Of a stretch of DNA of 64,000 nt, positions 33,943 through 47,419 are shown in pieces. The stretch lies in NCBI GenBank assembly GCA_016707425.1, contig JADJHU010000018.1, forward strand, positions 11,980-75,979, in the 5' to 3' direction. The stretch's first letter is position 1. Every line of letters starts with the position of its first letter. The notes beneath the pieces were generated by a model. It did no database searches and was not told the origin of the DNA. It saw only the letters and a program-made list of their open reading frames with translations. The position numbers and the translations under genes were made by a program. Source of the DNA: Gammaproteobacteria bacterium (GTDB lineage Bacteria; Pseudomonadota; Gammaproteobacteria; Steroidobacterales; Steroidobacteraceae).

Positions 33943-36150
33943 ATGGAATCAATGAACAGAACTCTCGTATCGACCCTGCTCGGCCCCGTAGCGCTGGCGC
34001 TTGCCCATGCTGCATCCGGGCAGGCCCCGGGCGACCCGCCGGGGGAAACCACAGGACTCCAGGAAATCGTCGTGACCGCGCAGAAGCGCGAGCAGAATCT
34101 CCAGGACGTGCCGATCGCGATCTCGGCAATCGCCCCCGATTACATCGAGAAGCACCAGATCACGACGATCACGAGCCTGACCAGCCTCGCTCCCAACCTC
34201 AAGATCGATCCCGCCGGGGCCAATCAGACGACCTCGACGATCGCCATCCGGGGCAATGTCCAGGGAAACCCGCAGCTCTACTTCGAACCTTCGGTCGGCC
34301 TGTATCTCGATGGTGTTTACATCGGCAAGGCTCAGGGTTCGATCTTCGATGTCGCGGACATCGAGAGAATCGAGGTGCTCCGCGGACCGCAGGGCACGCT
34401 CTACGGGCGCAATACCGTCGGCGGCGCCGTAAACATCATCGCGAAGAAGCCGAGCGGGGAGGGGGGGAAGGTCGAAGCGTCCTACGGAAACTTCGACTAC
34501 TGGCGCGTCCGGGGGTCGCTCGATCTGCCGCGCTTCGGCTTCTTCAGTGCCAAGCTCTCCGGGCAGATGGCCGAGCGCGCCGGCTTCTACGATGTGGCCG
34601 GCAACCCCGCGACCGACGAGGCACAGACGCTCGACAGCAAGAGCGTCATGCTGCAGCTGCGGGCGGAGCCGACCGAGGCGCTGGTCCTGGATTACGTGTT
34701 CGACCTGAGCGTGGTGGATCAGCAGGCCGGCTACGGCGCTCCGATCAGCGGCGTGGGCACTCTTGCGCCCTACGTGTTTCCGCGGAAGCGGCCGGAGAAC
34801 GTGAGCTTCAACAGCCCGAATTATGAGTATGCCCGCAATCACGGGCATGCACTCACGGCGGCTCTGCGATTCGGGGATGCCGCCACACTGAAGTCGATCA
34901 CCGCCTATCGCGAGCAGACCTACCACGATGCGCTCGATCTCGATGGTTCGCCGCTTTCACTGGGCTTGTCGTCGCGAGACACGCGTTATCGGCAACTCAG
35001 CCAGGAGTTTCAGCTCTCGGGGCGGGCGGCGCGGCTGAACTATGTCGCGGGGCTCTACTATTTCGAAGACGATGGCTTCGTGTTCAACCCGCAGTCCTTT
35101 TTCAATGGGTTCTCGCGTGTGGATTCGCGCTTTGGATTCACGACCAGGGCGTATGCAGCCTACGCACAGGGTGACTACGAGCTGACCGATTCGCTTACGC
35201 TTACGGCGGGTCTGCGCTACACGGACGAGAGGAAGACCATCGAGCGCTATTTCGCACGCCTCGCTCCGGTGCAGGCGGTCGTGATCAATCTGCCCGATGG
35301 CGCGGCGCCGGATGCGAGCTTCTCCAAGCTGTCGCCAACGGCGACGCTCGCTTACAAGATCAATCCGGACGTGAATGTCTATGCACGCTACGCGCAGGGC
35401 TACCGCAGCGGTGGCTTCAACGGAGTTTCCACAACCGTGGCGGATGTCCTGACACAGTTCCAGCCGCAGACACAGAACAGCTATGAGATCGGGCTGAAGT
35501 CCAGGCTGTTCGACAACCATGCGACGCTCAACGTGGCCGCGTTCTGGGATGAGTCGAAGGACCTGCAGCTCTCGGTGTTCCGCGCCGTCACCTCGGCGGC
35601 CAGCACCGTGGTCAATGCCGGTGCCGCACGCGTTCGCGGGATCGAGATTGAGGCCGGCGCGCGGCCGGTCGAATCCCTGTTCCTGCAGGCGGCGTTCGGC
35701 TATCTCGATGCCGAATACAAGCGGTACATCGACGCGGGCGTGGATGTCGCGGACAACCGCTCTTTTCCGTATGCCCCGAAGTACAGCTTCTCGACGAGCG
35801 TGCAGTGGACGGCGTTGCAGCGTGATTTCGGCAAGCTCGACCTGATCGTCGATCTCAGCAGGCTCTCCGGCTACTACCAGTCCGCCGCCGCACTTCGGCC
35901 GGCCAGCCCCACGGAGATCGATGCGCACAACACGCACAGCCCCGGACGCACGATGCTCGATGCGCGGGCGATCCTGAGCGAGTTCCCGATGGGTGGACTC
36001 AAGGGAGAGCTGTCGCTCTGGGGCCGGAATCTCCTGAACGAGGACGACCCGCAGTTCTTCATTGACTTCGGGGCCAATTTCCAGCGTCTCGCCGTCGCTT
36101 ACTTTCCGGACCCTCGTACCTACGGGATGACCTTGAGCGTGCGTTTCTGA
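33943..36150 (+). CDS. TonB-dependent receptor (TBDR2)
   Basis: 735 aa. Signal peptide, LQEIVVTAQKREQNLQDVPIAISAI, IEVLRGPQGTLYGRNT, and C-terminal ...PRTYGMTLSVRF. Confidence 0.9.
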   Translation: MESMNRTLVSTLLGPVALALAHAASGQAPGDPPGETTGLQEIVVTAQKREQNLQDVPIAISAIAPDYIEKHQITTITSLTSLAPNLKIDPAGANQTTSTIAIRGNVQGNPQLYFEPSVGLYLDGVYIGKAQGSIFDVADIERIEVLRGPQGTLYGRNTVGGAVNIIAKKPSGEGGKVEASYGNFDYWRVRGSLDLPRFGFFSAKLSGQMAERAGFYDVAGNPATDEAQTLDSKSVMLQLRAEPTEALVLDYVFDLSVVDQQAGYGAPISGVGTLAPYVFPRKRPENVSFNSPNYEYARNHGHALTAALRFGDAATLKSITAYREQTYHDALDLDGSPLSLGLSSRDTRYRQLSQEFQLSGRAARLNYVAGLYYFEDDGFVFNPQSFFNGFSRVDSRFGFTTRAYAAYAQGDYELTDSLTLTAGLRYTDERKTIERYFARLAPVQAVVINLPDGAAPDASFSKLSPTATLAYKINPDVNVYARYAQGYRSGGFNGVSTTVADVLTQFQPQTQNSYEIGLKSRLFDNHATLNVAAFWDESKDLQLSVFRAVTSAASTVVNAGAARVRGIEIEAGARPVESLFLQAAFGYLDAEYKRYIDAGVDVADNRSFPYAPKYSFSTSVQWTALQRDFGKLDLIVDLSRLSGYYQSAAALRPASPTEIDAHNTHSPGRTMLDARAILSEFPMGGLKGELSLWGRNLLNEDDPQFFIDFGANFQRLAVAYFPDPRTYGMTLSVRF

Positions 36151-36160: not shown

Positions 36161-37525
36161 ATGATCAGGCGAATGAGGGTGAGCGACCGCCACGTGAGGA
36201 GCCGGGTCGCCGCCCTGGCTGCGCTGATCGCTGTTGCGGCGAGCTCGCAACCGTTGGCGGCTGCGAGTGGCTCTGTGCTGGCCACGAAGGAACAGCTTGC
36301 GGGCGAGGCCCTCGCCCTGCGTGTACTGGCGAGTGCGCCGATGCGCAGACAGATCGAGGTACTGGAGGAGACGTATCGGCAGGACGCGCAGGGATCGACT
36401 CCAGCCGGCGGGGCGACGATCCGGCGGGCGGCGGATTCGGTGGCGGCTGCCGCGGCGTATTATGCGGTGATCGACGACGCGGACCGCCCGGTCTTTCTGT
36501 GGATTGGCAATGCCCCACATCGCTGGTTCGGGATCGAGGCACCGCGCGCAGGCTTCGGCATCGAGAATCCCGACAATGTCTACCGCGAGACGACCGTCGA
36601 CAGCGGGGCGCGATACGAGATCCGCGGCCGGGTGCGGCATCCGGGCCCGGCCGAACTGCACTTCGTGGTGATGGACTCGATTCCGGGGACGACGCCTGTA
36701 AGCGTCGAGGGTGGGCAGATACTCACGACGCTGCGCAGCGATGGGATGAAGATTGCCCCGGACGGCTCGTTCACTGTCACCGTGGATCGCGATCCGGCCG
36801 GCGGCCGCTCCAATCACCTCCAGCTGCCGCGCGAGGGCAAGTACCCGCTGCTCGTACGGGACCTGCTCACGGACTGGACCACACAGAAGCCCGTGGCCCT
36901 CGAGATTCGTCGCGTTGCGGGCCCAGCCCTCGCGCGGCCCCGGACCGAGGCCGAGGTGGCCCGGCGCGCCGCGGAGCTGCTGTCGCTGATCGGACCGTAC
37001 TGGGTAGCCTACGACAACCGCTTCGTCTATTCGAAGCCCCGCAATCAGGTCGCTGCGCCTCGTCATCGGCCCGGCGGCCGGGGCTTCTCCAGCAGTGGTC
37101 ATTTCGAGCTCGGCAGCGATGAGGCGCTCGTCGTGACGGTCGATCCACTCGGGGCCCGATCGCTCGGCTTTCAGCTCACCGACCCATGGGGGGTGGCTCT
37201 GGAGTACATCGGGCGGACGAGCAGTCTCAACAATGCCCAGGCGGCGGCGAACCCGGATGGCACGATCACGTTCGTCGTGACGGCCAGCGATCCGGGGGTC
37301 TACAACTGGCTCGACACCGATGCACTTGGATCGGGGATGTTCGCGATCCGCTGGCAGGCGCTGCCCGAGGGTACGAGCGGTGAACGGGCGGTGCGTGACG
37401 CACGAGTCGTGAAGCGCACGCAGCTGGAGGAGGCGCTGCCGGCGGGAACGAGATTCGTCACGCCCGCGCAACGGCGCGCGCAACAGGCCGCGCGGGCACG
37501 GGGCTATGCGCGGCGGCTCGAATGA
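36161..37525 (+). CDS. Unplaced family protein DUFx-2 (Sec-type leader, divergent copy)
   Basis: 454 aa. Leader RVAALAALIAVAASSQPLAAAS. Shares DEALVVTV, DPGVYNWLD, IRW and VTPAQR blocks with the other copies. Confidence 0.7.
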   Translation: MIRRMRVSDRHVRSRVAALAALIAVAASSQPLAAASGSVLATKEQLAGEALALRVLASAPMRRQIEVLEETYRQDAQGSTPAGGATIRRAADSVAAAAAYYAVIDDADRPVFLWIGNAPHRWFGIEAPRAGFGIENPDNVYRETTVDSGARYEIRGRVRHPGPAELHFVVMDSIPGTTPVSVEGGQILTTLRSDGMKIAPDGSFTVTVDRDPAGGRSNHLQLPREGKYPLLVRDLLTDWTTQKPVALEIRRVAGPALARPRTEAEVARRAAELLSLIGPYWVAYDNRFVYSKPRNQVAAPRHRPGGRGFSSSGHFELGSDEALVVTVDPLGARSLGFQLTDPWGVALEYIGRTSSLNNAQAAANPDGTITFVVTASDPGVYNWLDTDALGSGMFAIRWQALPEGTSGERAVRDARVVKRTQLEEALPAGTRFVTPAQRRAQQAARARGYARRLE

Positions 37526-37609
37526 GGCCGGGGTCGCAGGGCTGGTGAGCCGGGGCCGCGGGCGGTGTGGCTGCTATGATCCAGCACGCTCCATGGATGT
37601 CGCCTGCCA

Positions 37610-38213
37610 ATGACCTGCCCGAAGCCACCGACTGCCCGCACGCTGCAGCGCCAGGATACTTTCAGCCGCGTCTACGAGGCGGCGCTGAGCGAGTTCAGGA
37701 GGGTCGGGGTCGAGCAGGCGACCGTGAGCGAGATCTGCCGGCGGGCCGGCGTTGCCAAGGGCACGTTCTTTTTTCATTTCCCCACGAAGGATCACGTGCT
37801 GCTGGCAAGACAGCAGCGGATCTCGGAGGCGATGGCAGAGAGGATCAGTGCGGAGCTCCAGGACGTTCCCGACGCGCGGGCGTTCCTGCAGCGCCTGACC
37901 AAAATCGTCATGGAGGAGCATCAGGCTGTCGGCGATGTCGAGCTCGTGCGCCAGATCAACCTGGCTATCGTCCGCCTGGGGGGTCCCGCGGCTCGGCGTG
38001 GGACACACCGCCTTTGGCGTGGCGCTTGCGAGACAGATCGGCCGGCTCCAGCGGGAGGGAGTGATCCGCTCGGGTGTGAATGCGGCGAGACTCGCCGACT
38101 GCCTGCGGCTCAGCTTCTTCGGGTTTCTGCTCAATCCTCAGTCCTCCTTCGAGACGAGCCGCCGGCAGCTCGCGCTCCTGACGAAACTCCTGGCCGAGGC
38201 TCTCGTCACCTGA
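37610..38213 (+). pseudogene. TetR/AcrR family regulator, +1 frameshift at or near a G6 run (37978-37983)
   Basis: The N-terminal HTH (FSRVYEAALSEFRRVGVEQATVSEICRRAGVAKGTFFFHFPTKDHVL) is in the frame of track ORF 37610. A plausible helical C-terminus (HTAFGVALARQIGRLQREGVIRSGVNAARLADCLRLSFFGFLLNP...) is in the frame of track ORF 37935. The in-frame tail of ORF 37610 is Arg/Pro/Gly junk. Confidence 0.7.
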
Positions 38214-38263
38214 GCCATCCGAAACTCATTGACCGCGGTCAGTCAAGCGCATAGGATGCCCGC

Positions 38264-39439
38264 ATGGACTTCGAGTTCTCTCGTGACGAGCAGTCCTTCC
38301 TGCGGGAGGTGGATGGATTCCTCAGGGCGAACCACGATCCGCGGGTGATGGATCCCGGTCGGGAGAATCTGGCACAGCTGGTGGATACGCCTGAGCGGCG
38401 TACCTTCATGAAGCGACTGGCGGGGCAGGGCTGGCTCGGCATCACCTGGCCGAAGGAGCTCGGCGGCCAGGGCGGGCGGGGATTCTACGAATACCTGCTG
38501 AACGAGAAACTTTCCTCGGTCGGTGCGCCACAGCTCGGCAAGGGCACAGGCGTGGTCGGGAAGACTCTCATCAAAGTCGCGTCGGGGAAACTGGCGGGAG
38601 TTCTCCCCAGGATCCTGAATGCCGAGATCGAATTCGCCATCGGCTACTTCGAGCCGTCGGCCGGCTCGATGCGGCCGCCATGCGTCTCGGCCGAGCGCGC
38701 GGGCGAAGGTTGGGTGCTGAACGGGCAAAAGGTCTTCACGACCTCGGCGCACTTCGCGGACTGGTATTGGGTGGGGGCTCGCACCGATCCGGATGCGCCG
38801 AAGCACCACGGCATTTCGCTCTTTCTGGTATCCATGGACCATCCAGGACTCACGATCCACCCGATGCATACCATCGGTGGTGAACGGACGAATGCGGTCT
38901 TCTTCGACGATGTCTTCGTGCATGACGATTACCGGGTCGGGGAACTGAACAAGGGGTTCCAGTACATTGCCGAAGCGCTCGACCTGGAGCGCTTCGGCAT
39001 GTTCACCTTCTCGCCGATCCGCGCGCGCGTCGAGCTGCTGTGTGATTTCGTGAAGAGCGGACAGCGCGACGGCAAATCCCTGAAGGACGACGCGATCATC
39101 CGGCAGAGAGTGGCTCAGCTCGCGACCGAGTGCGAAGTGGCGCGTCTTCTCGGTGTGCGCTTCGTCGATGCGGCACTCGATGCGAACAGGACGCCCACCA
39201 TCCAGGCGTCCGAGTACAAGCTCTACGCGACGGAATTTTCCCGCCGTCTGGCCGATGCGACGATGGAGATCGTGGGCGTCGGCAGCCAGCTGCTGGCCGG
39301 CGCACCGGACGCGCCGCTCTCGGGTCGTGCTCCGGGCAGCTATACGCTCACGGTGCTCGAGACGATCGGTGGAGGCACCTCCGAGGTGCAGAAGAACATC
39401 ATTGCGACGCGCAAGCATGGCTTGCCGAAGAATTTCTGA
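38264..39439 (+). CDS. Acyl-CoA dehydrogenase family protein
   Basis: 391 aa. GWLGITWPKELGGQG, LNGQKVFTTSA and ETIGGGTSEVQKNIIA. A short out-of-frame-looking patch is described under findings. Confidence 0.85.
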   Translation: MDFEFSRDEQSFLREVDGFLRANHDPRVMDPGRENLAQLVDTPERRTFMKRLAGQGWLGITWPKELGGQGGRGFYEYLLNEKLSSVGAPQLGKGTGVVGKTLIKVASGKLAGVLPRILNAEIEFAIGYFEPSAGSMRPPCVSAERAGEGWVLNGQKVFTTSAHFADWYWVGARTDPDAPKHHGISLFLVSMDHPGLTIHPMHTIGGERTNAVFFDDVFVHDDYRVGELNKGFQYIAEALDLERFGMFTFSPIRARVELLCDFVKSGQRDGKSLKDDAIIRQRVAQLATECEVARLLGVRFVDAALDANRTPTIQASEYKLYATEFSRRLADATMEIVGVGSQLLAGAPDAPLSGRAPGSYTLTVLETIGGGTSEVQKNIIATRKHGLPKNF

Positions 39440-39462
39440 CTCACAGGAGTGTCGATCCAGCC

Positions 39463-40488
39463 ATGAAGGTCTACACCACGGCCCCCCTCGAGGACCCGCG
39501 TCAGGCACGTACGATCTATCCGGAGCTCGAGAGGATCGGTTACGACGGAGTGTTCTCCTTCGAGGCGAAGCACGATCCCTTCGTGCCGCTGGCCGTCGCC
39601 GCCGAGCACACGCAGAAGCTGCGCCTCGGCACGGGCATCGCGATTGCCTTTGCCCGGAATCCCATGAACCTCGCCAATCTGGGCTACGACCTGCAGTCGA
39701 TCACCGGCGGGCGCTTCGTGCTCGGGCTCGGCTCCCAGGTGAAGCCTCACATCGAGAAGCGGTTCAGCTCCGTGTGGTCGCATCCGGCCGAGCGCATGCG
39801 CGAGATCGTGCTCGCCATCAAGGCGATCTGGAGCTGCTGGGAGGGTCGGTCAGAGCTGAACTTCCGCGGCCGGTTCTACACGCACACGATCATGATCCCG
39901 GCCTTCAATCCGGGACCCAATCCCTTCGGGCCGCCGCCCATTCTCACCGGTGGATTCGGCCCGATGATGACCGCCGTGGCCGGTGAGGCGGCCGACGGCT
40001 TCATTGCCCATCCCTTCAATACCCGGCGCTCGCTTCTCGAGAACACGCTGCCGGCGCTCGAGGCGGGACTCGCGAAATCCGGGCGCCAGCGCGCCGACCT
40101 CGAGGTGATCTGCGCGACGCTCGTGGTCACTGCCGCAACCGAGGAGGCGCTCGAAGCCTCAAAGCTCGCCGCACGCAAGCAGCTCGCCTTCTATGGATCG
40201 ACGCCCGCCTATCGACCGACGCTGGCCTGCCACGGGTGGGAAGGCATTCACGGGGAACTGAACCGCCTGTCGAAGGCCGGACGCTGGGACGACATGACGA
40301 GTCTCATCACCGATGACATCCTGAACGAGATCGCGGTGGTCGGCGAACCACACACCATTGCCACGAAGCTGCAGGCGCGCCTCGAGGGGATCGCGGACGG
40401 GGTCAGTCTCACGCACAACCGGTGCCCGGATCCGGGCCATTGGGCCGGTGTCGTCCAGGATCTCAGGAAGCATCGGAAGCCGCGATGA
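39463..40488 (+). CDS. Luciferase-like (LLM) oxidoreductase, probably F420-dependent (MSMEG_2256-like)
   Basis: Start trimmed to MKVYTTAPLED.... ERIGYDGVFSFEAKHDPF, GRFVLGLGSQVKPHIEKRF and EAADGFIAHPF. Confidence 0.8.
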   Translation: MKVYTTAPLEDPRQARTIYPELERIGYDGVFSFEAKHDPFVPLAVAAEHTQKLRLGTGIAIAFARNPMNLANLGYDLQSITGGRFVLGLGSQVKPHIEKRFSSVWSHPAERMREIVLAIKAIWSCWEGRSELNFRGRFYTHTIMIPAFNPGPNPFGPPPILTGGFGPMMTAVAGEAADGFIAHPFNTRRSLLENTLPALEAGLAKSGRQRADLEVICATLVVTAATEEALEASKLAARKQLAFYGSTPAYRPTLACHGWEGIHGELNRLSKAGRWDDMTSLITDDILNEIAVVGEPHTIATKLQARLEGIADGVSLTHNRCPDPGHWAGVVQDLRKHRKPR

Positions 40489-41672
40489 GCGACGATCATG
40501 AGAGAGTACTTCGGCGTGCGTGGGAGAGCTTCTGCGACGAGCTGAAGCGCGCGGTGGATATTCCGCTCCGCGCGCCCGTCCCGGCGCAGGTCGCGACGCG
40601 TGCCGCGGGCTTCGAAGCGCTGGCGCGCAACATCTCTCTTGCACTGAATTTCCATCACGACTACGCGGATCCCCGGTATCCCGAGCTGATTCACTACTTC
40701 GATCCCGTACGGAAGCAGGGCGGTGACAACACCGATGCGGTCTACGTCGGTGCGACCATCAATGGCACCGACACTTATCGGATCAGCGGCGATCGCGGTA
40801 CCGCGCGCTTCTTCGGGATCACTTCGGTCGAGCGCGGCCAGACGCCCTGGGGCGGCAAGGTCGCCCACACTCTTTTCGGCCGCGATCTCGAGGTCGGGCC
40901 GGACGGCTGCTTCGAACTCATTTGCAGCCCGACGCCGCATCCGGGCAACTGGCTGAGGACGACGCCTGAGACCTTCCGGATCACTTTTCGTCAGTTCTTC
41001 GCCGACTGGGAGCACGAACGGCCGATGAAGGCGCGCATCGACCGTCTGACGGGCGACATGAGCCCGCCGGCACCGATCACGCCCGAGAGGCTGGCCGAGC
41101 AGCTGCAGGCCTCGGCGCGATGGGTGGGAGAGTCGCTCGCGTTCTGGGTCCGCATGATCAACATGTGGAAGGTCATGCCGAACACCTTCCGGTCCTACAA
41201 GCAGCTCGCGGACCAGGCCATCGACGCCACGCCTGGCGGCGAACCGATGATTGCCTACTGGGCGCTGCCACCGGACGAAGCGCTGATCGTGCGTGTGCGC
41301 CCGCCCGCCTGTCCGTACTGGGCGGTCGAGTTCGGTAATTTCTGGTGGACGAGCATGGACTATCGCTACCGGCTCTCGAACACGAACTGTCATTATGCCG
41401 AGCTCGAGGACGACGGTGAGCTGATCGTGGTGATCGCCCACGAGGACCCTGGCCTGCCGAACTGGCTCGAGACATCGGGTTTCGCCGAAGGCTACGTCAC
41501 CTACCGCTGGATGCGGGCGGAGAGCTGCCCGGAGCCGAAGGCCACGCAGGTCAAGACGGCGGAGCTGTTCAGATACCTGCCGCAGAACGCCAGGCGCATC
41601 ACCCCGGAGGCGCGGTGCGAGCAGCTCGCGGCCCGTCGTCGTGGCGTCATCAACCGCTTCGGCAATCTCTGA
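40485..41672 (+). CDS. Unplaced family protein DUFx-3 (no leader, cytoplasmic copy)
   Basis: ATGA overlap with the LLM stop. MSDDHERVLRRAWESF... has no signal peptide. Closest paralogue of DUFx-1 (shared HYFDP, RKQGGDN, GDRGTARFF, PHPGNWL, RQFFADWE, ALIVRVRPP, DYRYRLS, DPGLPNWL, RRITPE). Confidence 0.75.
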   Translation: MSDDHERVLRRAWESFCDELKRAVDIPLRAPVPAQVATRAAGFEALARNISLALNFHHDYADPRYPELIHYFDPVRKQGGDNTDAVYVGATINGTDTYRISGDRGTARFFGITSVERGQTPWGGKVAHTLFGRDLEVGPDGCFELICSPTPHPGNWLRTTPETFRITFRQFFADWEHERPMKARIDRLTGDMSPPAPITPERLAEQLQASARWVGESLAFWVRMINMWKVMPNTFRSYKQLADQAIDATPGGEPMIAYWALPPDEALIVRVRPPACPYWAVEFGNFWWTSMDYRYRLSNTNCHYAELEDDGELIVVIAHEDPGLPNWLETSGFAEGYVTYRWMRAESCPEPKATQVKTAELFRYLPQNARRITPEARCEQLAARRRGVINRFGNL

Positions 41673-41692
41673 GGCCGCACGAGGAGAGGCGC

Positions 41693-42952
41693 ATGGCACA
41701 GGAGCGGAACGGAGCGTGGACGCCACCGCCGCGACCGGAGTGGGTCGCCCGCGTCAACGAGGAAGGGCGCAGCATGGACATCGCGAGCCTGGTGCCGCTG
41801 CAGCCGGGCGAGCTTCTCGAGACGGCGATGCGCAACACGGGCCTCTCGGACTTCGGCTCCGGCGAGTGGCGCGAGCCCTTCGAGGTTCTGGTGAAATCGC
41901 TCGAGGAGGAGGCGGAGCTCAACCTCTTCGGACGGCTGATGACGCGCAGCGATCTGCTCATCTGGCTGCAGGAGCGGCTGGAGATCGAGGAGGCATACCG
42001 TCGCCATCCGGAGATCGATGCGGAAGTGCTCGCAGAGCCCGTCTTCATCGTCGGACAGCCCCGCTCCGGCACCTCGATCCTCTTCGAGCTGCTGTCCCAG
42101 GATGCGCAATTCGGCGTGCCGACGAACTGGGAGATCATGTTTCCGTGCCCACCGCCGGAAGCCGCGACCTACCGGACCGACCCGCGGATCGCCAGGGCGG
42201 AGCATCTGCTCACGCAGTGGTATCGGGTTGCGCCGACCTTTCGCACCATGCACGAGCTTGGGGCCACGATCCCCAACGAATGCAAGGTGGCGATGAACTG
42301 CACTTTCGTCAGTGACAACCTCACGGGGATTTTCCAGGTGCCGGGCTACTATGCCTGGCTGATGAAGGCGGACCTGACCTACCCGTACGCCTACTACCGG
42401 CGCATGCTGAAACTCCTGCAATGGCGCAACCCCCGCCGCTACTGGCTCCTCAAGTCGCCGTCGCACATCTGGAGCCTGCCGACGCTGTTCAAGGTCTTCC
42501 CGGATGCCCGCGTGATCTACACTCATCGCGATCCGATTGTGACCCGGGCCTCGGTCACCAATCTGCTCGGCACGATCTACTGGATGCGCAGTGACAAGGT
42601 CTTCGACGCGGAGGCTTTCGAACGCGTGCTCGAGCCGGAGGGCGTCGCAGCCGGGATGAACCTGGTGATCGATCAGATCGAGAAGGGCGAGATCCCGCGT
42701 GCACGGATTCACGACTTCCAGTTCGCGGATCTCATCGAGCGGCCGATCGAGGCGGTGCGTTCGCTCTACGACCGCGCCGGACTGCAGTGGACCGCCGCAG
42801 CGCAGGCCGGCATGGAGGCTTACCTCGCACACAAGCCGAAGGGAAAGTTCGGTGCGCACCGCTACGAGGTGAGCGACGGTGCGCAGATCGAGCGCGAGCG
42901 CCGGCTCTATGCGCGCTACCAGCGATTTCACGGCGTTCGGAACGAAGTCTGA
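41693..42952 (+). CDS. Sulfotransferase family protein (cytoplasmic, about 419 aa), copy 2
   Basis: Start trimmed to MAQERNGAW after GAGGAGAGG. GQPRSGTSILF and YTHRDP motifs. Co-linear with copy 1 (shared NTGLSDFG, LLQWR, LKSP/CPQH blocks). Confidence 0.8.
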   Translation: MAQERNGAWTPPPRPEWVARVNEEGRSMDIASLVPLQPGELLETAMRNTGLSDFGSGEWREPFEVLVKSLEEEAELNLFGRLMTRSDLLIWLQERLEIEEAYRRHPEIDAEVLAEPVFIVGQPRSGTSILFELLSQDAQFGVPTNWEIMFPCPPPEAATYRTDPRIARAEHLLTQWYRVAPTFRTMHELGATIPNECKVAMNCTFVSDNLTGIFQVPGYYAWLMKADLTYPYAYYRRMLKLLQWRNPRRYWLLKSPSHIWSLPTLFKVFPDARVIYTHRDPIVTRASVTNLLGTIYWMRSDKVFDAEAFERVLEPEGVAAGMNLVIDQIEKGEIPRARIHDFQFADLIERPIEAVRSLYDRAGLQWTAAAQAGMEAYLAHKPKGKFGAHRYEVSDGAQIERERRLYARYQRFHGVRNEV

Positions 42953-42978
42953 TCCCGGATGAACAGAGGAGCGAAGGC

Positions 42979-43806
42979 ATGGATCTCGGACTGAAGGGCA
43001 AGACCGTCGTCATTACCGGCGGGAGCGGTGGGATCGGTCAGGGTCTGGTGATGGAGTTCGCACGCGAAGGGGCGAACGTGGTCTCTGCATCACGCGACAT
43101 GAAAGTAGGCGAGAAGCTTGCGGCCCTGGCGCGGGAACAGGGCTTCGCGGGCAGCGTGCTGCCGGTGTCGACCGATGTCACGAAGCGCGCGAGCGTGGAC
43201 GCCATGATCGCACAAGCGCAGCAGCGCTTCGGGCCTGTGGACGCGCTGGTCAACAACGCGGGGGGCGTCAAACGCAGCTGCGCCTTCGAGGAACTCGACG
43301 ACGAGACGCGCCGCTGGGAGCTCGCCCTTAATATCGATGGCGTCGTCAACTGCACACTCGCTGTCGCCCAGGACATGCTCTCGCGAGGCAGGGGGAGCGT
43401 CGTCAACATTTCCTCGAACTCCTCTCTTCTCGGGGAGGCAGCCCAGCAGGTGGTGCACTACGGCTCGACCAAGGGTTTCGTGAACAGTTTCTCGAAGGCG
43501 CTCGCCTACGAGTGGGGCCCAAAGGGCGTGCGCGTGAACACGATCGCCCCCGGCTGGATCGTGCCGCACCGGGACGAGGACATTTCGGCAGGCAGCTTCT
43601 GGAACCGGCTGGAATTCGTCGGCACACCCGAGGGGATGCAGAAGGCGCTCGAGGCCGGGACGCTGCCGAACATGAGCCATCTGCCGATCAAGCGGCTCGG
43701 GCGCCCCGAGGAGGTGGCCCATCTCGCCATGTTCCTCGCCTCCGAGATCTCGGGCTACATCACGGGTCAGCTGATTTCCATCAGTGGTGGGGTGTACATG
43801 CCATGA
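42979..43806 (+). CDS. SDR family oxidoreductase
   Basis: Start trimmed to MDLGLKGKTVVITGGSGGIGQG. NNAGG and YGSTKGF. Confidence 0.85.
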   Translation: MDLGLKGKTVVITGGSGGIGQGLVMEFAREGANVVSASRDMKVGEKLAALAREQGFAGSVLPVSTDVTKRASVDAMIAQAQQRFGPVDALVNNAGGVKRSCAFEELDDETRRWELALNIDGVVNCTLAVAQDMLSRGRGSVVNISSNSSLLGEAAQQVVHYGSTKGFVNSFSKALAYEWGPKGVRVNTIAPGWIVPHRDEDISAGSFWNRLEFVGTPEGMQKALEAGTLPNMSHLPIKRLGRPEEVAHLAMFLASEISGYITGQLISISGGVYMP

Positions 43807-44582
43807 GGACCGCGCCCATGAGTCTCGAGGGGCGCACCGCCATCGTCACCGGCGCAGGCTCGGGCATTGGGGCTGCGATCGCACGACGCCTGGCCGGAGC
43901 CGGCGCTCGAGTGATCGCGGCAGACATTCGGACCGAGGCCGTCGAGACACTGGCCGCCGGGACCCGGGAGGTCACGGCGTGCCGCTGTGATGTCACGCAT
44001 GCGGCCGAGGTCGATGCGCTGGTCGGGAGCGCCGTCGAGCGCTTTGGGCGGCTCGATGTGATGGTCAACAACGTCGGGCAGTCGATCGCCGGCTGGCTGA
44101 AGGATGCGACGGACGAGGAGTGGCAGCGGGTGCTCGCGCTGACGCTCTCCTCGGCGTTCTACGGCGTGCGCGCTGCGCTTCGCGTCATGCTGCCTCGGGG
44201 TTCCGGGAGCATCATCAATATTTCGTCGGGTGCAGGCTTTGGCGGCTCGCCGGGTCTTGCCACCTACGGGGCGGCGAAAGCCGGTGTCAACAATCTCACT
44301 CAGTCGGCGGCCGTGGAGAATGCCCGAAGCGGCGTACGCATCAATGCCATCTCGCCCGGAGCGATCGAGACACCTGCGATTCTTGCCTGGGCACGGAGCC
44401 TTCCGGGTGGAGTACCCGCCTATGAGGCGACGCTGCTGCCGGGGCGCTTCGGGAGGCCGGACGAGATTGCTGCGGCCGCACTCTTTCTCGCGTCCGACGA
44501 GGCGAGCTTCGTAAACGGCGCGGTGCTGCCGGTGGACGGGGCCGCATCCGCACGCATGCCGGCCATCGAGGTGCCCAAGTAG
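43803..44582 (+). CDS. SDR family oxidoreductase
   Basis: ATGA overlap with the upstream SDR. GRTAIVTGAGSGIGAAIA, NNVG, YGAAKAG and PGAIETP. Confidence 0.85.
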   Translation: MRTAPMSLEGRTAIVTGAGSGIGAAIARRLAGAGARVIAADIRTEAVETLAAGTREVTACRCDVTHAAEVDALVGSAVERFGRLDVMVNNVGQSIAGWLKDATDEEWQRVLALTLSSAFYGVRAALRVMLPRGSGSIINISSGAGFGGSPGLATYGAAKAGVNNLTQSAAVENARSGVRINAISPGAIETPAILAWARSLPGGVPAYEATLLPGRFGRPDEIAAAALFLASDEASFVNGAVLPVDGAASARMPAIEVPK

Positions 44583-44611
44583 CCGCGCGCCTCCAGTATG
44601 GCTGGGCCATC

Positions 44612-45799
44612 GTGGCCGTTGCCTTTCTCGCGCAACTGCTGGCGATGGGCACGACAGCCTATGGCTTCGGCTTGCTCGTCAAGCCGATGGCTGCCGAATA
44701 CGGACTGTCGCGCGCTGATGTCAACAGTGGCCTGATCCTGCTGCTCGTTGGCATGGCTGCGGCCTCGCCCTTCATCGGCCGGGCCTTCGATCGGCTGCCA
44801 GGCCGCGTGCTGTTTGCCGGCGCGGCGCTGGTATTCGGCCTCGGCTGTGCGGCCGTCGCCGCGACGCGATCGCTGTGGCTGATGGCTGCGGCGACGGTTC
44901 TGCCACTGGCGATCGGAGCGGCCGCGCTGGGTCCGCTGGCCGGCTCGACGCTCATTGCGCGCTGGTTCGATCATCACCGCGGACGCGCTCTCGGCGTGCT
45001 GGCGGTCTCCTCCTCCGCAGGGGGTCTCGTCGTGTTGCCCCTGATGGCACTCCTGGTCGAGGCTCTTGGCTGGCGCATGGCGCTGACCCTCATGGGCGCC
45101 GCGACGGCGCTGCTCATCGTGCCGCTGGCGCTGATGATCATCCGCGAACGTGATCAGGAGGACTCTGCCCGGGAGGACGCGCCTGCGCCAGCGTCCCACG
45201 CGCGGCCAGAGGGACCCGATGTGCGCCGGTGGACGGTGGGGGAACTCCTCCGTGCGCGTGACTTCTGGCTGCTCGCACTCTGTGTCGGACTGATCACGGG
45301 TGTCGATCAGGCGCTGCTCGCTTCGCTCATCGCCCACGGCACGGATCGGGGATTTTCACTGCAGGCGGCCAGCCTTCTGGTGTCCGCGATCTCGGGCTCG
45401 GCGATTGCCGGCAAGCTCATCGTCGGGACGCTCGCCGATCGCATCGACATGCGCTGGCTGGTTTGGACCGTGGCAGTGCTCACCGAGGTCTATCTCGGCT
45501 GTCTGCTTGCGCAAACCGGCTACGGTACGCTCTTCGTCGCGTCGCTCCTGGTCGGCATGGCCATTGGGGGCGTGATGCCGCTCTGGGCGGCGTTCATCGG
45601 GGCCCGCTTCGGAGCCGCGTCGTTCGGGACTGCGATGGGGCTGATGATCCCGGTGCAGATGCCGCTCACACTCACGTGTCTGCGCTATGTGGGGCATGCC
45701 TATGACGTGTCCGGGAGCTATGAGCCGGCGTTCCTCGCCTTCGCAGGCATCATGCTGTTTGCAGCGCTGGCCGTGCTGCCGGTGAGGGTGGCGCGCTGA
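44612..45799 (+). CDS. MFS transporter
   Basis: 395 aa, about 12 hydrophobic segments. The D-R-x-G-R-like loop FDRLPGRV lies after TM2. GTG start. Confidence 0.8.
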   Translation: MAVAFLAQLLAMGTTAYGFGLLVKPMAAEYGLSRADVNSGLILLLVGMAAASPFIGRAFDRLPGRVLFAGAALVFGLGCAAVAATRSLWLMAAATVLPLAIGAAALGPLAGSTLIARWFDHHRGRALGVLAVSSSAGGLVVLPLMALLVEALGWRMALTLMGAATALLIVPLALMIIRERDQEDSAREDAPAPASHARPEGPDVRRWTVGELLRARDFWLLALCVGLITGVDQALLASLIAHGTDRGFSLQAASLLVSAISGSAIAGKLIVGTLADRIDMRWLVWTVAVLTEVYLGCLLAQTGYGTLFVASLLVGMAIGGVMPLWAAFIGARFGAASFGTAMGLMIPVQMPLTLTCLRYVGHAYDVSGSYEPAFLAFAGIMLFAALAVLPVRVAR

Positions 45800-46029
45800 G
45801 AAGGGTGCGCGCCGTCACCCAGGTTCGGACCTTCACCGGCCAGACGGCGCCTATCAGCCAACGGCCTGGCCGCTGCCCACACCCGCGCCCACACCGGGCC
45901 CAACCCGCGCGCAGCGGCTCAGCTCAGCGCCACGAGGCGCACGCGCGGGCCACGCCGCACGGACGCCAGGCCACGCGCCGCCAGCAACACCACCCGGCAC
46001 TCCGGCTCGACCCCTCCTCCCAGCTCACG

Positions 46030-46041
46030 CCCCCCCCCCCC
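46030..46041. repeat. Homopolymer C12
   Basis: Counted directly in the sequence. Confidence 0.95.
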
Positions 46042-46127
46042 ACCCGATCCGGGTCCCGGCCTGTGCCCAAGCGACTTCGACCCCACAGCCCGCCCCACGC
46101 CGTCAGTTCCAGACCCCCCGCACGCAG

Positions 46128-46155
46128 CCCCCCCCCCCCCCCCCCCCCCCCCCCC
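46128..46155. repeat. Homopolymer C28
   Basis: Counted directly. The run ends 46 nt upstream of the CoA-transferase ATG (46202) and 35 nt upstream of its AGGAGG. Confidence 0.95.
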
Positions 46156-46201
46156 GTGCCGGAGACAGCATGGCGGCAGGCGCAACACGTAGGAGGCACT
46201 C

Positions 46202-47419
46202 ATGACCCTGGCACTGGAAGGCATTCGCGTCCTCGACTGGACCATCTGGCAGCAGGGACCCATCGGCACGGCGCTGCTCGGCGATCTTGGGGCGGAGGTC
46301 ATCAAGCTCGAGGCGCTCGAGGGCGACCCGGGCCGTGGTCTGGTGCGCCTCTCTGGTATGGGTCTCGCAGAACGCCCGAACTTCTACATCGAGGCGAACA
46401 ACCGCAACAAGAAGAGCCTTGCGCTCGACCTGAAGAAACCGGAAGCGCGCGAGATCGTCCACGAACTCGTGAAGCGCGCGGATGTCTTCGCACAGAACTT
46501 CCGCGTCGGAGTGGCCGAGCGTCTCGGACTCGACTACGAGACTCTGCGTGACCACAACCCGAGGCTCATCTATGCGCACGCGACGGGCTTCGGGCCCAAG
46601 GGCCCCGAGGCCGCCGTGGCCGCGATGGACCAGATGGGCATTGCCCGATCGGGGCTCATGCTCGCAGTGGGCGAGCCCGACGCCCCACCGCAGCAGATCG
46701 CCGGCGGCATCGCGGACCAGATGAGCGGCATCATGCTCGCCTGGGGCGTGCTCGCCGCCTTGGTCGCACGTGAGCGTCATGGCATGGGGCAGAAGGTCGA
46801 CGTGTCCCAACTCGGATCGATGGCGCTCCTGCAGGGGCTCAATCTCTCCGCCAGGCTCATGCTGGGGACAGCGATCCCGCGCGTGCGCCGCAGCGAGTCG
46901 GCAAATCCGCTCTGGAATCACTACCGCTGCGCGGACGGGCTCTGGCTCGTGCTCGGCATGGCACAGGGCGAGCGCCATTGGGCGGCATTCTGTCGCGCCC
47001 TCGGCGCTCCTGAGATCGAAGGCCTGTGGAGCGGGGCTCGCGCGTCGGCTGCGAGCGGCGATGCGGCCGCCACGGCGGCCGTGGCAGCGCTCGATGAGCG
47101 CTTTGCCAGCCGCCCGCGTGCGGAGTGGCTGGCGCAGCTGCGCGCCGCGAGCGCGGATTTCATCGTCGCACCGGTCAATCGCCTGGAAGATCTCCCGGAT
47201 GATCCCCAGGTACGGGCCAACGAGTACGTCACGGAGTTCGATCATCCCCAGCACGGTCCGACACGCATGGTTGGTTTCCCGGTGGGACTCTCCGCGACGC
47301 CGGCATCCATCCGGGCTGCGGCGCCTGAGCTCGGACAGCATACGGAGGAGGTGCTGCAGGAGTTGCTCGGTTACGACTGGGAGCGCATCGGACACCTGCG
47401 TGCGCGCGGCGTGATCTAG
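46202..47419 (+). CDS. CaiB/BaiF family (class III) CoA-transferase
   Basis: 405 aa. GIRVLDWTIWQQGPIGTALLGDLGAEVIKLE is the family N-terminal signature. Confidence 0.9.
   Translation: MTLALEGIRVLDWTIWQQGPIGTALLGDLGAEVIKLEALEGDPGRGLVRLSGMGLAERPNFYIEANNRNKKSLALDLKKPEAREIVHELVKRADVFAQNFRVGVAERLGLDYETLRDHNPRLIYAHATGFGPKGPEAAVAAMDQMGIARSGLMLAVGEPDAPPQQIAGGIADQMSGIMLAWGVLAALVARERHGMGQKVDVSQLGSMALLQGLNLSARLMLGTAIPRVRRSESANPLWNHYRCADGLWLVLGMAQGERHWAAFCRALGAPEIEGLWSGARASAASGDAAATAAVAALDERFASRPRAEWLAQLRAASADFIVAPVNRLEDLPDDPQVRANEYVTEFDHPQHGPTRMVGFPVGLSATPASIRAAAPELGQHTEEVLQELLGYDWERIGHLRARGVI

Follow-up and report, generated by a model that had tools for sequence, protein, structure and literature searches.

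A sulfotransferase–DUF1214–SDR gene cassette in a catabolic-type operon of a gammaproteobacterium

Gene content of module B and its surroundings

Here we describe module B, a string of seven open reading frames (ORFs) on the plus strand of a Gammaproteobacteria MAG (the source is not an actinobacterium). It lies in a 64-kb window, by which we mean the whole stretch of DNA that was analysed. From 5' to 3', the ORFs encode an acyl-CoA dehydrogenase (ACAD), a luciferase-like oxidoreductase (LLM), a DUF1214 protein, a PAPS sulfotransferase (ST), two classical SDRs (SDR1 and SDR2) and an MFS transporter, and a split TetR gene lies upstream. The intergenic gaps from ACAD to MFS are 23, −4, 20, 26, −4 and 29 nt. 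The ORF coordinates confirm the seven-gene string and the exact gaps given in an earlier note on this DNA, and its reading of the string as an operon is borne out by the operon-like layout. The gene families, checked with Pfam and NCBIfam profiles, also agree with that note for all seven genes, its 'DUFx' being DUF1214 (PF06742).

The ACAD (38264–39439) contains three ACAD Pfam domains and is ChsE4/FadE26-like (PimC-large-like). Tcur3483 (E 4e-52) and ChsE4 from M. tuberculosis (4X28_A; E 3e-49) are its nearest relatives of solved structure, whereas generic ACADs match it at E 1e-28 or weaker. The LLM (39463–40488; Bac_luciferase) scores 456 bits against TIGR03617 'F420_MSMEG_2256' (cutoff 278), has Mer-type F420 enzymes as its nearest solved structures and is predicted to be F420-dependent. 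The DUF1214 protein (40485–41672) matches PF06742 at 37 bits (cutoff 25), and the 419-residue ST (41693–42952) matches Sulfotransfer_3 (PF13469) at 112 bits. SDR1 (42979–43806; adh_short, 169 bits) is followed by SDR2 (43803–44582; adh_short_C2, 209 bits), the start of which overlaps the SDR1 stop. The MFS protein (44612–45799; MFS_1, 132 bits) is of the monocarboxylate/oxalate-formate type; among NCBIfam models the highest-scoring are those for L-lactate, oxalate/formate and conjugated-bile-salt MFS transporters, none of which reaches its cutoff.

Two further genes lie 3' of the string. A family III CoA-transferase (46202–47419, plus strand; CoA_transf_3, 374 bits) follows after a 400-nt gap, and its membership in module B is open to doubt; just 4 of the 80 loci that we fetched for ST homologues (50–88% identity) have a CoA-transferase close to the ST. 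On the minus strand (49074–51199), Pfam identifies an OYE + Pyr_redox flavoenzyme (2,4-dienoyl-CoA reductase/BaiCD-like) in two ORFs, split at about 50261–50267; the gene is a single ORF in locus L057. OYE/DCR-like ene-reductase genes recur at 16 of the 80 loci no more than 3 kb from the ST, and in L055, which has no DUF1214 gene, one overlaps the ST start.

The TetR-family regulator (37610–38213, plus strand; TetR_N, 48.6 bits) occupies two frames, with residues 1–125 in the frame of position 37610 and residues 125–201 in another frame that ends at 38213. The switch falls inside a GGGGGG run (about 37977–37982). An intact TetR from locus L040 matches the window in different frames at 84% (residues 1–125) and 86% identity (residues 125–201; tblastn), and orthologues occupy the same position 5' of the ACAD or LLM gene in L003, L004, L006, L009, L011–L013, L040, L043, L050 and L052. 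The frameshift reported earlier is thus present as a two-frame split. Because the window holds other indel-type anomalies (the split dienoyl-CoA-reductase-like gene and a compensated ACAD frameshift at about 38660–38690), the apparent pseudogene may be an assembly error.

The sulfotransferase, its DUF1214 partner and their conservation

Both motifs described earlier for the ST are found (GQPRSGTS, residues 121–128; THRDP, residues 277–281), and the key residues R124, G126, T127, H278, R279 and S287 do not vary among the proteobacterial and mycobacterial homologues. Full-length sequence matches to Stf9 (2Z6V; E 4e-41) and Stf1 (2ZQ5; E 1e-37) identify the ST, as judged from sequence, as a full-length relative of these mycobacterial enzymes, and Foldseek comparison gave TM scores of 0.72–0.82 to them. 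Given the invariant motif residues and the Stf9/Stf1 fold, the ST looks PAPS-competent. Membership in the CurM/OLS group was considered and rejected, since fold similarity is weak (TM 0.32–0.49) and thioesterase, ACP and PKS context is absent. To our knowledge, neither Stf1 nor Stf9 has a known physiological acceptor, and our literature search found no paper on one.

The DUF1214 protein of module B is leaderless, as had been proposed, and the window's three other DUF1214 copies each have a Tat or Sec signal. It matches 6ANS by sequence at E 4e-61, and its AF2 model (pLDDT 85) superimposes on that structure with TM scores of 0.83–0.89. The fold consists of two beta-sandwiches plus helices. A fold search found no enzyme relatives; its matches were structural-genomics entries only, with no assigned activity among them. 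Across 131 representatives (pairwise identity below 50%), a polar site made up of D84, Y87, Y98, R169, N233, D292, N301, D310, D321, N326 and R341 is at least 90% conserved at each position. The ST-adjacent copies examined are all leaderless with two exceptions: in L038 a Tat-signal paralogue lies 370 nt from a second ST, and in P0377 the N-terminus is uncertain. Exported paralogues instead adjoin TonB-dependent receptors, sulfatases or DUF3604 genes. One metagenomic protein, P0439, fuses an SRPBCC (lipid-binding) domain, an ST (40% identity, E 2e-97) and a DUF1214 part (33% identity, E 3e-50), and P0407 is a fusion of DUF1214 with a SnoaL/LEH-like domain.

The extent of the conserved unit became apparent from 72 ST loci of alpha-, beta- and gammaproteobacteria with enough flank for synteny analysis. 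In 63 of these, no more than 2.5 kb separates the ST from a DUF1214 gene; 61 of the pairs share a strand and 39 are immediate neighbours, with either gene first. Searching from the DUF1214 side, a Sulfotransfer_3 gene was adjacent in four of five informative contexts, and at about 12% of ST loci DUF1214 was absent, HMM search included. An SDR1 orthologue (at least 55% identity) is found within 2.5 kb in 37 of the 72 loci, often between DUF1214 and ST, making SDR1 the third core member. The other genes vary: orthologues of the ACAD and the LLM (at least 60% identity) occur in 9 and 16 of the 72 loci, an SDR2-related SDR (at least 40% identity) in 12, and an MFS homologue within 10 kb in 8 of 80; 17 Halieaceae-type loci have a different LLM 3' of the ST. 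The conserved unit is the ST with a cytoplasmic DUF1214 protein, usually with SDR1, and not the whole seven-gene string, in which ACAD and MFS are accessory.

The same cassette, on sequence grounds, is Rv3531c–Rv3530c–Rv3529c of M. tuberculosis. Rv3531c resembles the DUF1214 protein (28% identity, E 9e-34), Rv3530c resembles SDR1 (29% identity, E 9e-26) and Rv3529c resembles the ST (E 1e-41), and the three overlapping genes form an operon beside kshA. Rv3531c is preceded by a KstR operator (PMC1995591), and its transposon mutants are depleted on cholesterol, the cholesterol/glycerol ratio being 0.28 (p 1e-4; PMC3182942 supplement), a modest effect that could have a polar cause.

Accidental juxtaposition of unrelated genes, for which only the mixed look of the gene set speaks, is ruled out by synteny over three proteobacterial classes, by the mycobacterial trio and by the gene fusion; we give it next to no credence. 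The earlier note named homologous operons without the ST or DUFx as the sign of a chance pairing, and the comparison shows the opposite, with ST and DUF1214 as the constant part and ACAD, LLM and MFS as the changing ones. Its view that an ST in a catabolic setting is unusual does not stand: the ST family is encoded in 297 species-representative genome hits, and its context is nearly always catabolic-looking, including the KstR regulon. It is thus firmly shown that ST and DUF1214, with or without the SDR, form one conserved functional unit in catabolic contexts, and module B is best explained as a TetR-controlled catabolic operon with this cassette as its core.

A possible sulfation step in lipid or steroid breakdown

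Because the cassette is common to marine and wastewater Proteobacteria and the M. tuberculosis cholesterol regulon, lipid or steroid breakdown may include a previously undescribed sulfation step. The steroid link rests on the M. tuberculosis trio and the similarity of the ACAD; 9,10-seco pathway genes were not found within the 64-kb window. We tentatively favour, with a probability of roughly 40%, a reading in which a lipophilic intermediate bearing a hydroxyl is sulfated at the expense of PAPS and DUF1214 deals with the resulting ester, perhaps by eliminating sulfate. The starting compound would be a lipophilic acid, probably similar to a steroid or isoprenoid, handled as a CoA thioester, as the ChsE4-like ACAD and the nearby CoA-transferase suggest, and the SDR(s) and LLM would adjust a hydroxyl group in oxidation state or stereochemistry. 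The ST, going by its family and motifs, would sulfate that hydroxyl in the cytoplasm with PAPS as donor. DUF1214 may then bind the ester, and sulfate would leave by elimination, giving an alkene, or by substitution, so that a hydroxyl beyond the reach of redox chemistry alone could be removed or moved; the OYE-type ene-reductases that recur by the cassette may reduce the double bond so formed. Sulfate as a leaving group, already suggested earlier, gains circumstantial support from these OYE neighbours and the DUF1214–SnoaL fusion, and elimination is also consistent with the sulfate-eliminating enzymes among the ST fold neighbours (retinol dehydratase, CurM-ST and OLS-ST). The expense of PAPS in a catabolic step counts against sulfation, and neither PAPS-synthesis nor PAP-phosphatase genes were among the recurrent neighbours of ST loci.

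A pure binding or chaperone role of DUF1214 fits the genomics equally well. It figures in a second, doubtful though by no means far-fetched reading, in which the ST conjugates hydroxylated or phenolic compounds that are toxic or dead ends and that cells encounter during growth on hydrophobic substrates (phase-II-like), DUF1214 binds and hands over the amphiphilic product non-catalytically, and a transporter such as the MFS protein exports it. The MFS gene directly 3' in module B, a DUF1214 fold without enzyme relatives, the lipid-binding SRPBCC domain of P0439 and exported paralogues beside TonB-dependent receptors, as fits a ligand-binding family, all argue for it. However, MFS genes are rare at ST loci, the cassette keeps company with dehydrogenases, ene-reductases, ACADs and TetRs and not with efflux systems, normal growth on cholesterol carbon needs Rv3531c, and the invariance of so many DUF1214 polar residues exceeds what a generic lipid pocket needs.

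Stf0 acts in the formation of sulfolipid-1, and Stf3, with Cyp128, in that of sulfomenaquinone, both in M. tuberculosis; all Stf members with assigned roles that we know of are biosynthetic. The membership of the ST in this family (stf0–stf3 are listed in PMC3141025), and an adjoining oxidoreductase recalling the Cyp128/Stf3 logic, would accord with a cassette that makes a sulfated lipid or signalling metabolite, the LLM or an SDR readying the hydroxyl. We consider this unlikely: the neighbours are of catabolic type (ChsE4-like ACAD, CoA-transferase, dienoyl-CoA-reductase-like gene, TetR repressors and TonB-dependent receptors), the M. tuberculosis trio is under the cholesterol-catabolism repressor KstR, and lipid-synthesis or export machinery (PKS, acyltransferase or MmpL-like) is not recurrent with the cassette.

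The window is unusually rich in sulfate-ester genes, with three large S1 sulfatases (15058–18033, 52792–55227 and 55224–57557), an alkylsulfatase-like MBL protein (22084–23361) and a second ST (25613–26950), besides two TonB-dependent receptors. A signal-bearing DUF1214 gene lies directly 5' of two of the sulfatases, and leaderless orthologues elsewhere lie 5' of an ST. The island could on this basis import sulfate esters (steroid or alkyl sulfates), with DUF1214 binding them in both compartments and the ST, reversed or trans-sulfating, recovering activated sulfate or shuffling positions. Sulfate transfer from an alkyl sulfate to PAP is, however, thermodynamically unfavourable, and because an S1 sulfatase occurs within 10 kb at just 5 of 80 ST loci (the alkylsulfatase-like gene at 2), the link belongs to this island rather than to the cassette, making the proposal decidedly improbable.

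Least probable among the sulfation schemes is sulfation of a 4-hydroxyacyl-CoA by the ST with elimination by the adjacent ACAD (ACAD10/11- or LvaA/LvaC-like), or CurM-like olefin formation by ST and thioesterase through decarboxylative elimination; we think either very improbable. The ACAD gene is indeed two genes 5' of the ST in the same operon, and CurM-ST and OLS-ST are remote fold neighbours, but the ACAD accompanies few STs and is nearest to ChsE4 and Tcur3483, both steroid side-chain enzymes, and CurM-ST aligns at TM 0.32–0.45 only. The earlier note had also pointed to an APH-like kinase and an ACAD in the island. Both are present, although the kinase gene (30774–32150) is part of a different unit, some 6 kb 5' of the ACAD gene and separated from it by the TetR gene, a TonB-dependent receptor gene and two DUF1214 genes, and an APH gene is found close to the ST at 3 of 80 loci. 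The analogies to ACAD10/11 and CurM are thus not supported in the form given earlier.

Comparison with known systems

For the favoured sulfation–elimination chemistry, we take the nearest precedent to be retinol dehydratase (1FML, 1X8K). This Spodoptera enzyme sulfates an alcohol with PAPS and eliminates the sulfate to give an alkene; it is a single cytosolic SULT-type enzyme that has no partner protein and is only very remotely similar to the ST (TM about 0.31–0.39). CurM/OLS ST–thioesterase didomains share the PAPS sulfotransferase fold and the concept of sulfation to create a leaving group, but are PKS-embedded and act on ACP-bound beta-hydroxyacyl chains with a dedicated thioesterase, all of which module B lacks. 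ACAD10/11 and LvaA/LvaC likewise make a leaving group out of an unreactive hydroxyl in a catabolic pathway, at the expense of an activated group; they use ATP and phosphate with a kinase and ACAD fused or adjacent, whereas PAPS and sulfate are proposed here and the ChsE4-like ACAD is dispensable to the cassette. Another phosphorylation–elimination system is the 25-hydroxysteroid kinase/lyase of Sterolibacterium.

The clostridial bai operon (bile-acid 7-alpha-dehydroxylation) has similar parts to those in and around module B, at the family level only: SDRs of the hydroxysteroid dehydrogenase kind, a family III CoA-transferase, OYE + Pyr_redox enzymes (BaiCD/BaiH type) and an MFS transporter, with a SnoaL-fold counterpart here nearby or fused to DUF1214. 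Module B has no BaiE or BaiB orthologue, and bai presumably contains neither a sulfotransferase nor DUF1214. Among DUF1214 structures, 6ANS (B. cenocepacia) is a close full-length relative, and the two-domain DUF1254+DUF1214 proteins VPA0735 and VPA0106 (V. parahaemolyticus) match in part (TM about 0.4).

In sequence as well as in structure (TM 0.73/0.78), the ST is matched best by M. avium Stf9, along its full length and with conserved PAPS motifs, at only about 26–30% identity. The M. tuberculosis stf1 operon, at only 28–29% identity, has the order DUF1214–SDR–ST, as do the Halieaceae loci, in contrast to DUF1214–ST–SDR in module B, which further contains the ChsE4-like ACAD, the TIGR03617 LLM, SDR2 and the MFS gene, in a gammaproteobacterial host and a sulfatase-rich island. 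Both nevertheless combine a leaderless DUF1214-like protein, an SDR and an Stf-type ST with an N-terminal helical extension, in translationally coupled genes, a catabolic context and the company of a TetR-family repressor.

Module B and its sulfotransferase

Module B (37610–45799) consists of a split TetR gene followed by seven genes on the + strand: an ACAD (38264–39439), a luciferase-like oxidoreductase (LLM; 39463–40488), a DUF1214 protein (40485–41672; Pfam PF06742), a sulfotransferase (ST; 41693–42952; Pfam PF13469), two SDRs (SDR1, 42979–43806; SDR2, 43803–44582) and an MFS transporter (44612–45799). The gaps between successive genes, from ACAD to MFS, are 23, −4, 20, 26, −4 and 29 nt. 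All genes listed in the earlier note are present with the gaps it gave, and the families are backed by Pfam and NCBIfam; what the note called 'DUFx' is DUF1214. The LLM belongs to TIGR03617, a predicted F420-dependent family (456.4 bits; NCBIfam cutoff 278.15); no F420-biosynthesis family was matched by Pfam among the ORFs scanned in the 64-kb window. The PDB matches of SDR1 are FabG-like SDRs of a generic kind; 17-beta- and 7-alpha-HSDHs are two of many, and the matches point to no particular specificity. A promoter and terminator scan of 37300–46400 yielded one promoter-like and five terminator-like sites, no excess over shuffles, and is uninformative about the operon limits.

The TetR gene upstream of ACAD does occupy two reading frames, as had been noticed: residues 1–125 lie in the frame of 37610 and residues 125–201, ending at 38213, in a second frame, the switch falling inside a GGGGGG run (~37977–37982). 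Two more indel-type anomalies occur inside 13 kb, namely a compensated frameshift in ACAD (~38660–38690; window 'AGSMRPPCVSAERAGEGW' versus orthologue 'AGSDAAAMRLKAERRGEGW') and an OYE/Pyr_redox gene broken into two ORFs at ~50261–50267. Because of these two, the TetR 'pseudogene' is possibly an assembly artefact. Reading the frameshift as a sign of derepression is unsafe, given the G6 homopolymer and the nearby indel anomalies. An SDR ORF at 23626–24111 spans only the C-terminal half of its domain. Together, the anomalies in TetR, ACAD, OYE/Pyr_redox and this SDR suggest errors of the MAG assembly, not decay of the island. A TetR gene lies directly upstream in at least ten related loci as well; that of module B scores only 22.5 bits against the KstR model (cutoff 280), and no operator was identified.

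The ST matches Sulfotransfer_3 at 112.1 bits (cutoff 27; aa 116–367). Its homology to mycobacterial Stf enzymes is full-length, an N-terminal helical extension of ~110 aa included: phmmer aligned aa 40–410 with M. avium Stf9 (2Z6V; E 3.9e-41) and aa 40–401 with M. tuberculosis Stf1/Rv3529c (2ZQ5; E 1.1e-37). The AF2 model (pLDDT 84) gives Foldseek TM values of 0.72–0.82 to Stf9 and Stf1, compared with ~0.3–0.57 for all other sulfotransferases (TPST, CurM-ST, OLS-ST, 3-OST, cytosolic SULTs and retinol dehydratase). The two motifs pointed out previously were found at aa 121–128 (GQPRSGTS, the 5'-phosphosulfate-binding loop) and aa 277–281 (THRDP, which with S287 forms the 3'-phosphate-binding motif), and there is no variation at G121, R124, G126, T127, H278, R279 and S287 among 23 sequences from Proteobacteria and mycobacteria. 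The ST therefore belongs to the Stf1/Stf9 family; its PAPS-binding motifs are intact, and PAPS-dependent activity is predicted. Its nearest relatives in species-representative genomes are from Steroidobacteraceae, Rhodocyclaceae/Thauera and Halieaceae. An actinobacterial origin, to which the GC content and the F420 and Stf families might point, is rejected on the grounds of these relatives and of the 100% identity of the ST and DUF1214 proteins to those of a Gammaproteobacteria MAG.

Conservation of the cassette and its surroundings

We fetched 80 loci with ST homologues (50–85% identity; designated L0xx) from species-representative genomes and mapped all window proteins onto them; synteny was counted over the 72 in which the ST has flanking sequence of 2.6 kb or more on each side. 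A DUF1214 homologue lies within 2.5 kb of the ST in 63 of the 72 (88%), on the same strand in 61 of those 63. The two genes are directly adjacent in 39 loci, and about 20 more have exactly one SDR1 orthologue between them. SDR1 orthologues are present in 37 of the 72 loci, orthologous LLMs in 16 and ACADs in 9; a different LLM stands 3' of the ST in 17 Halieaceae-type loci. The order TetR–ACAD–LLM–DUF1214–ST occurs only in a Steroidobacteraceae-like set (L003, L004, L011, L013, L040, L043, L050 and L052). Given these counts and this restriction, the invariant core is the ST with a cytoplasmic DUF1214 protein, usually together with SDR1, and ACAD, LLM, SDR2 and MFS are accessory. In the reverse direction, a DUF1214-profile search of 1.84 billion proteins gave 4832 clusters at E ≤ 1e-3; of the representatives' contexts inspected, four of five informative ones had an adjacent Sulfotransfer_3 gene, with an SDR also present in three of the four. 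Accidental juxtaposition of ST and DUF1214, which the earlier note had allowed for, is refuted by the conserved adjacency; ST, DUF1214 and SDR are tightly coupled in evolution, in catabolic contexts and across phyla.

The mechanistic analogies proposed for module B fared less well. Against a CurM/OLS sulfotransferase–thioesterase, no thioesterase, ACP or PKS domain was found by Pfam in the module B genes or the flanking genes scanned, and the nearest structures are not CurM-ST or OLS-ST: 4GBM and 4GOX align with the ST at TM 0.32–0.49 (E ~1e-5) and rank under Stf9, Stf1 and the tyrosylprotein sulfotransferases (TPSTs). Against a kinase–ACAD pair of the ACAD10/11 or LvaA–LvaC type, the island does hold both an APH-like kinase and an ACAD; the kinase sits in a separate unit ~6 kb upstream, ACAD accompanies the ST in only the 9 of 72 loci, and no ACAD10 or ACAD11 chain is named among the 60 best listed solved relatives of the ACAD. 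Because the defining features of neither system were found, the ST is neither a CurM/OLS sulfotransferase–thioesterase nor part of an ACAD10/11-type pair, and we regard the ACAD-dependent elimination as highly improbable.

In about 12% of the ST loci no DUF1214 was detected, even by HMM search of six-frame translations. At one of these (L055, 7950–11239) a 677-aa ORF resembling the OYE-type flavoenzyme has its stop inside the beginning of the ST gene, which is followed by an SDR; five others (L059, L066, L068, L071 and L073) have an OYE-like match 1.3–1.5 kb upstream of the ST. An OYE-type flavoenzyme may be an alternative partner of the ST for the same chemistry where DUF1214 is missing. In 16 of all 80 loci, the ST has an OYE/DCR-like gene no more than 3 kb away. 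ORFs of the 80 loci were clustered with a crude ORF caller, antisense 'shadow' clusters being disregarded; the recurrent clusters of unassigned ORFs that were scanned (LLM, acyl-CoA synthetase, PQQ-ADH, EthD, Dabb, transketolase, aminotransferase, FMO and AraC) included none of the PAPS-supply genes cysC, cysN, cysD and cysQ. Four operons (L040, L043, L050 and L052) are mosaic: their ACAD, LLM, DUF1214 and SDR1 are 82–92% identical to those of the window, and their ST only 58–59%, compared with 83–85% in L002–L004. The ST appears to have been swapped as a cassette, perhaps with a change of acceptor specificity.

Outside module B, the window forms a catabolic island in which sulfate-ester genes are unusually abundant. 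It encodes three large S1 sulfatases of the formylglycine type (15058–18033, 52792–55227 and 55224–57557; ORFs of ~780–990 aa), whose unusual length presumably parallels that of the large mycobacterial Ats proteins; for the one searched against the PDB (55224–57557), the nearest entries are a Bacteroides arylsulfatase and AtsA of P. aeruginosa. An alkylsulfatase-like MBL protein (22084–23361) is leaderless, resembles Pisa1, a sec-alkylsulfatase, and SdsA1 only distantly (E ~5e-12) and lacks their C-terminal region, and a second Stf-type ST of 445 aa (25613–26950) is 30% identical to that of module B. Two TonB-dependent receptors, a PQQ alcohol dehydrogenase, OYE-type flavoenzymes, a GST, a DUF3604 protein and the APH-like kinase are also present. 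A salvage of sulfate esters, or a reverse transfer, could be tied to these island sulfatases. Within 10 kb of the ST, S1 sulfatases occur in 5 of the 80 loci, the alkylsulfatase-like gene in 2, APH in 3 and MFS in 8; sulfatase richness is a trait of this island, not of the cassette, and we consider salvage or reverse transfer very unlikely. Module B is a Stf-type ST locus extended with ACAD, LLM and MFS in a sulfatase-rich gammaproteobacterial island.

Several features of the island stand apart from the cassette. The alkylsulfatase-like protein, SDR genes and the second ST form a 'Module A' (22084–26950) that recurs in L004 (1–4659), where it directly abuts module B; its cytoplasmic ST and alkylsulfatase-like enzyme suggest a make-and-break sulfate-ester cycle, for example for stereoinversion of a secondary alcohol. 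The exported DUF3604 protein (28218–30155, − strand; 611 bits to PF12228) has homologues of 39–40% identity in two loci: that of L013 stands just 3' of the ST, with a signal-bearing DUF1214 after it, and that of L022 is ~7 kb away from the ST; DUF3604 is another uncharacterised family travelling with such islands. An imuA-like/imuB/dnaE2 error-prone polymerase cassette (8094–13231, − strand) also lies inside the island, with a DNA_pol3_alpha protein of 1063 aa, an IMS-family protein and a 216-aa protein without Pfam match.

DUF1214 proteins and their compartments

The module B DUF1214 protein matches PF06742 at 37 bits (cutoff 25). The B. cenocepacia protein 6ANS, itself uncharacterised, aligns with it in sequence (E 4e-61) and in structure (TM 0.83–0.89); Vibrio DUF1254/DUF1214 proteins are more distant matches. 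The fold search of its model returned structural-genomics entries only and no enzyme fold. Cry toxins, SIDT and cupin dioxygenases were set aside as fold relatives (TM <0.2). Among 131 representatives of <50% identity, D84, Y87, Y98, R169, N233, D292, N301, D310, D321, N326 and R341 are at least 90% conserved. Since this polar set persists across such diverged proteins, it indicates a specific binding or catalytic site.

Four DUF1214 paralogues are present in the window, and the module B copy alone is leaderless. The others carry a Tat-type signal (SRRTVLEAGG; 32589–33920), a Sec-type signal (36161–37525) and a Tat-like one (MGRRELF; 51519–52856), and adjoin a TonB-dependent receptor or sulfatases: the first two flank the receptor at 33943–36150 and the third precedes two exported S1 sulfatases. 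The ST-adjacent DUF1214 proteins examined are leaderless with two exceptions: in L038, a paralogue with a Tat signal stands 370 nt away from a second ST, and P0377, a homologous protein, has an uncertain N terminus. Orthologues of the 51519–52856 copy have no signal in L003 and L040, where they precede an ST paralogue, whereas the window copy has a signal and precedes sulfatases; compartment and partner thus co-vary. On sequence grounds, the ST and its DUF1214 partner are both cytoplasmic.

The two families also occur in one chain. P0439, a 963-aa metagenomic protein (locus L084, 18–2909), is a continuous fusion of an SRPBCC (Polyketide_cyc2) domain, a Stf-type ST and DUF1214; identity to the module B proteins is 40% for the ST part (E 2e-97) and 33% for the DUF part (E 3e-50). 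Its neighbours encode a TetR, a molybdopterin oxidoreductase, an SDR, an acyl-CoA synthetase and a BVMO. In P0407 (539 aa), DUF1214 is fused to a SnoaL_2/limonene-epoxide-hydrolase-like domain. On a rival reading, the ST would conjugate a compound for export, with DUF1214 as a binding protein. Module B does end in an MFS gene; we view conjugation and export as possible, though improbable.

Mycobacterial counterpart and possible chemistry

DUF1214, ST and SDR genes are adjacent on one strand in the window (40485–43806), in an M. tuberculosis-complex locus (L082, 2486–5546) and in M. kansasii (L083, 6077–9146). The Stf1 sequence was largely rebuilt from a HMMER alignment, which led to a 384-aa M. 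tuberculosis-complex protein (P0121) and from it to L082. There, three overlapping genes lie next to kshA: Rv3531c (375 aa, no Pfam match on record), Rv3530c (a 260-aa SDR) and Rv3529c (Stf1, 384 aa). The same trio is found near hsaEFG-type genes and kshA in M. kansasii. Over 341 aa, Rv3531c shares 28% identity with the DUF1214 protein of module B (E 9e-34); Rv3530c matches SDR1 at E 9e-26 and Stf1 the window ST at E 1e-41. The cassette of module B is what corresponds, in Proteobacteria, to the stf1 operon of M. tuberculosis. Between Rv3531c and Rv3532 there is a KstR operator (PMC1995591), and Rv3531c insertion mutants are depleted on cholesterol versus glycerol (ratio 0.279, p 1.0e-4; PMC3182942 supplement). 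The trio lies inside the heavily studied cholesterol regulon, and its first gene is of importance to cells growing on cholesterol.

We put at roughly 0.4 the probability of an obligatory sulfation step in catabolism, in which DUF1214 acts on the sulfate ester or together with it. From the families, a TetR-controlled operon would act on a lipophilic substrate, probably a steroid- or isoprenoid-like acid as CoA ester; the SDRs and LLM would adjust a hydroxyl or ketone, and the ST would O-sulfate the hydroxyl with PAPS. Hypothetically, DUF1214 would then bind the sulfate ester, with sulfate as leaving group in an elimination or substitution, and OYE-type ene-reductases would reduce the product, the net result being removal of the hydroxyl. 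The recurrent ene-reductase neighbours and the DUF1214–SnoaL fusion fit such a leaving group, as do the retinol dehydratase and CurM/OLS precedents and the SRPBCC fusion P0439, whose separate lipid-binding domain leaves less need for DUF1214 to be a pure lipid carrier. That DUF1214 is itself the sulfate-eliminating enzyme is doubtful. We would call equally speculative the full proposal of a two-component, PAPS-driven dehydroxylation, in which the Stf-type ST would activate an unreactive alcohol on a steroid or isoprenoid, DUF1214, as a new sulfate-ester lyase or transferase family, would expel the sulfate, and OYE-type ene-reductases would complete the reductive removal of the hydroxyl.

To our knowledge, bacterial PAPS sulfotransferases have almost solely biosynthetic roles (sulfolipids, Nod factors, natural products), and the cassette might make a sulfated lipid or signal. 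Here, one ST family sits nearly always in catabolic gene sets and is tied to the large DUF1214 family by conserved adjacency, compartment match and gene fusion; a biosynthetic role seems unlikely. The literature searched gave no function for the cassette, DUF1214 or Rv3529c–Rv3531c: mentions of DUF1214 and DUF1254 were not functional, and searches pairing sulfotransferases with steroid degradation, with the carrier genera or with sulfate elimination yielded nothing on the cassette. Were the dehydroxylation reading true, obligatory catabolic sulfation would be a conserved trait shared by the KstR regulon of M. tuberculosis and Proteobacteria of marine and wastewater habitats, and a first function would fall to DUF1214, a family of >4800 clusters at 50% identity, and to the orphan genes Rv3529c–Rv3531c. 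Interest lies less in module B alone than in the widespread, cross-phylum ST–DUF1214–SDR unit in catabolic settings. The comparative data yield a testable pairing, ST and DUF1214 with or without SDR on hydroxylated steroids or terpenoids, and culturable carriers include Thauera terpenica 58Eu, Sphingobium estronivorans, Croceicoccus estronivorus, Kineobactrum sediminis and mycobacteria. A positive outcome would give DUF1214 a function and could expose sulfate-ester intermediates in lipid breakdown.

The nearest solved relatives of the ACAD are Tcur3483 (6WY8_B, E 3.6e-52) and ChsE4/FadE26 (4X28_A, E 2.9e-49), with generic ACADs at 1e-28 or weaker. Tcur3483 and ChsE4 are subunits of steroid side-chain ACADs. 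No partner gene of the ChsE5 type accompanies the single ACAD of module B, and related loci likewise have one. Compared with the ChsE4–ChsE5 alpha2beta2 enzyme, module B is therefore missing the adjacent second ACAD gene but shares the similarity to the ChsE4 subunit.
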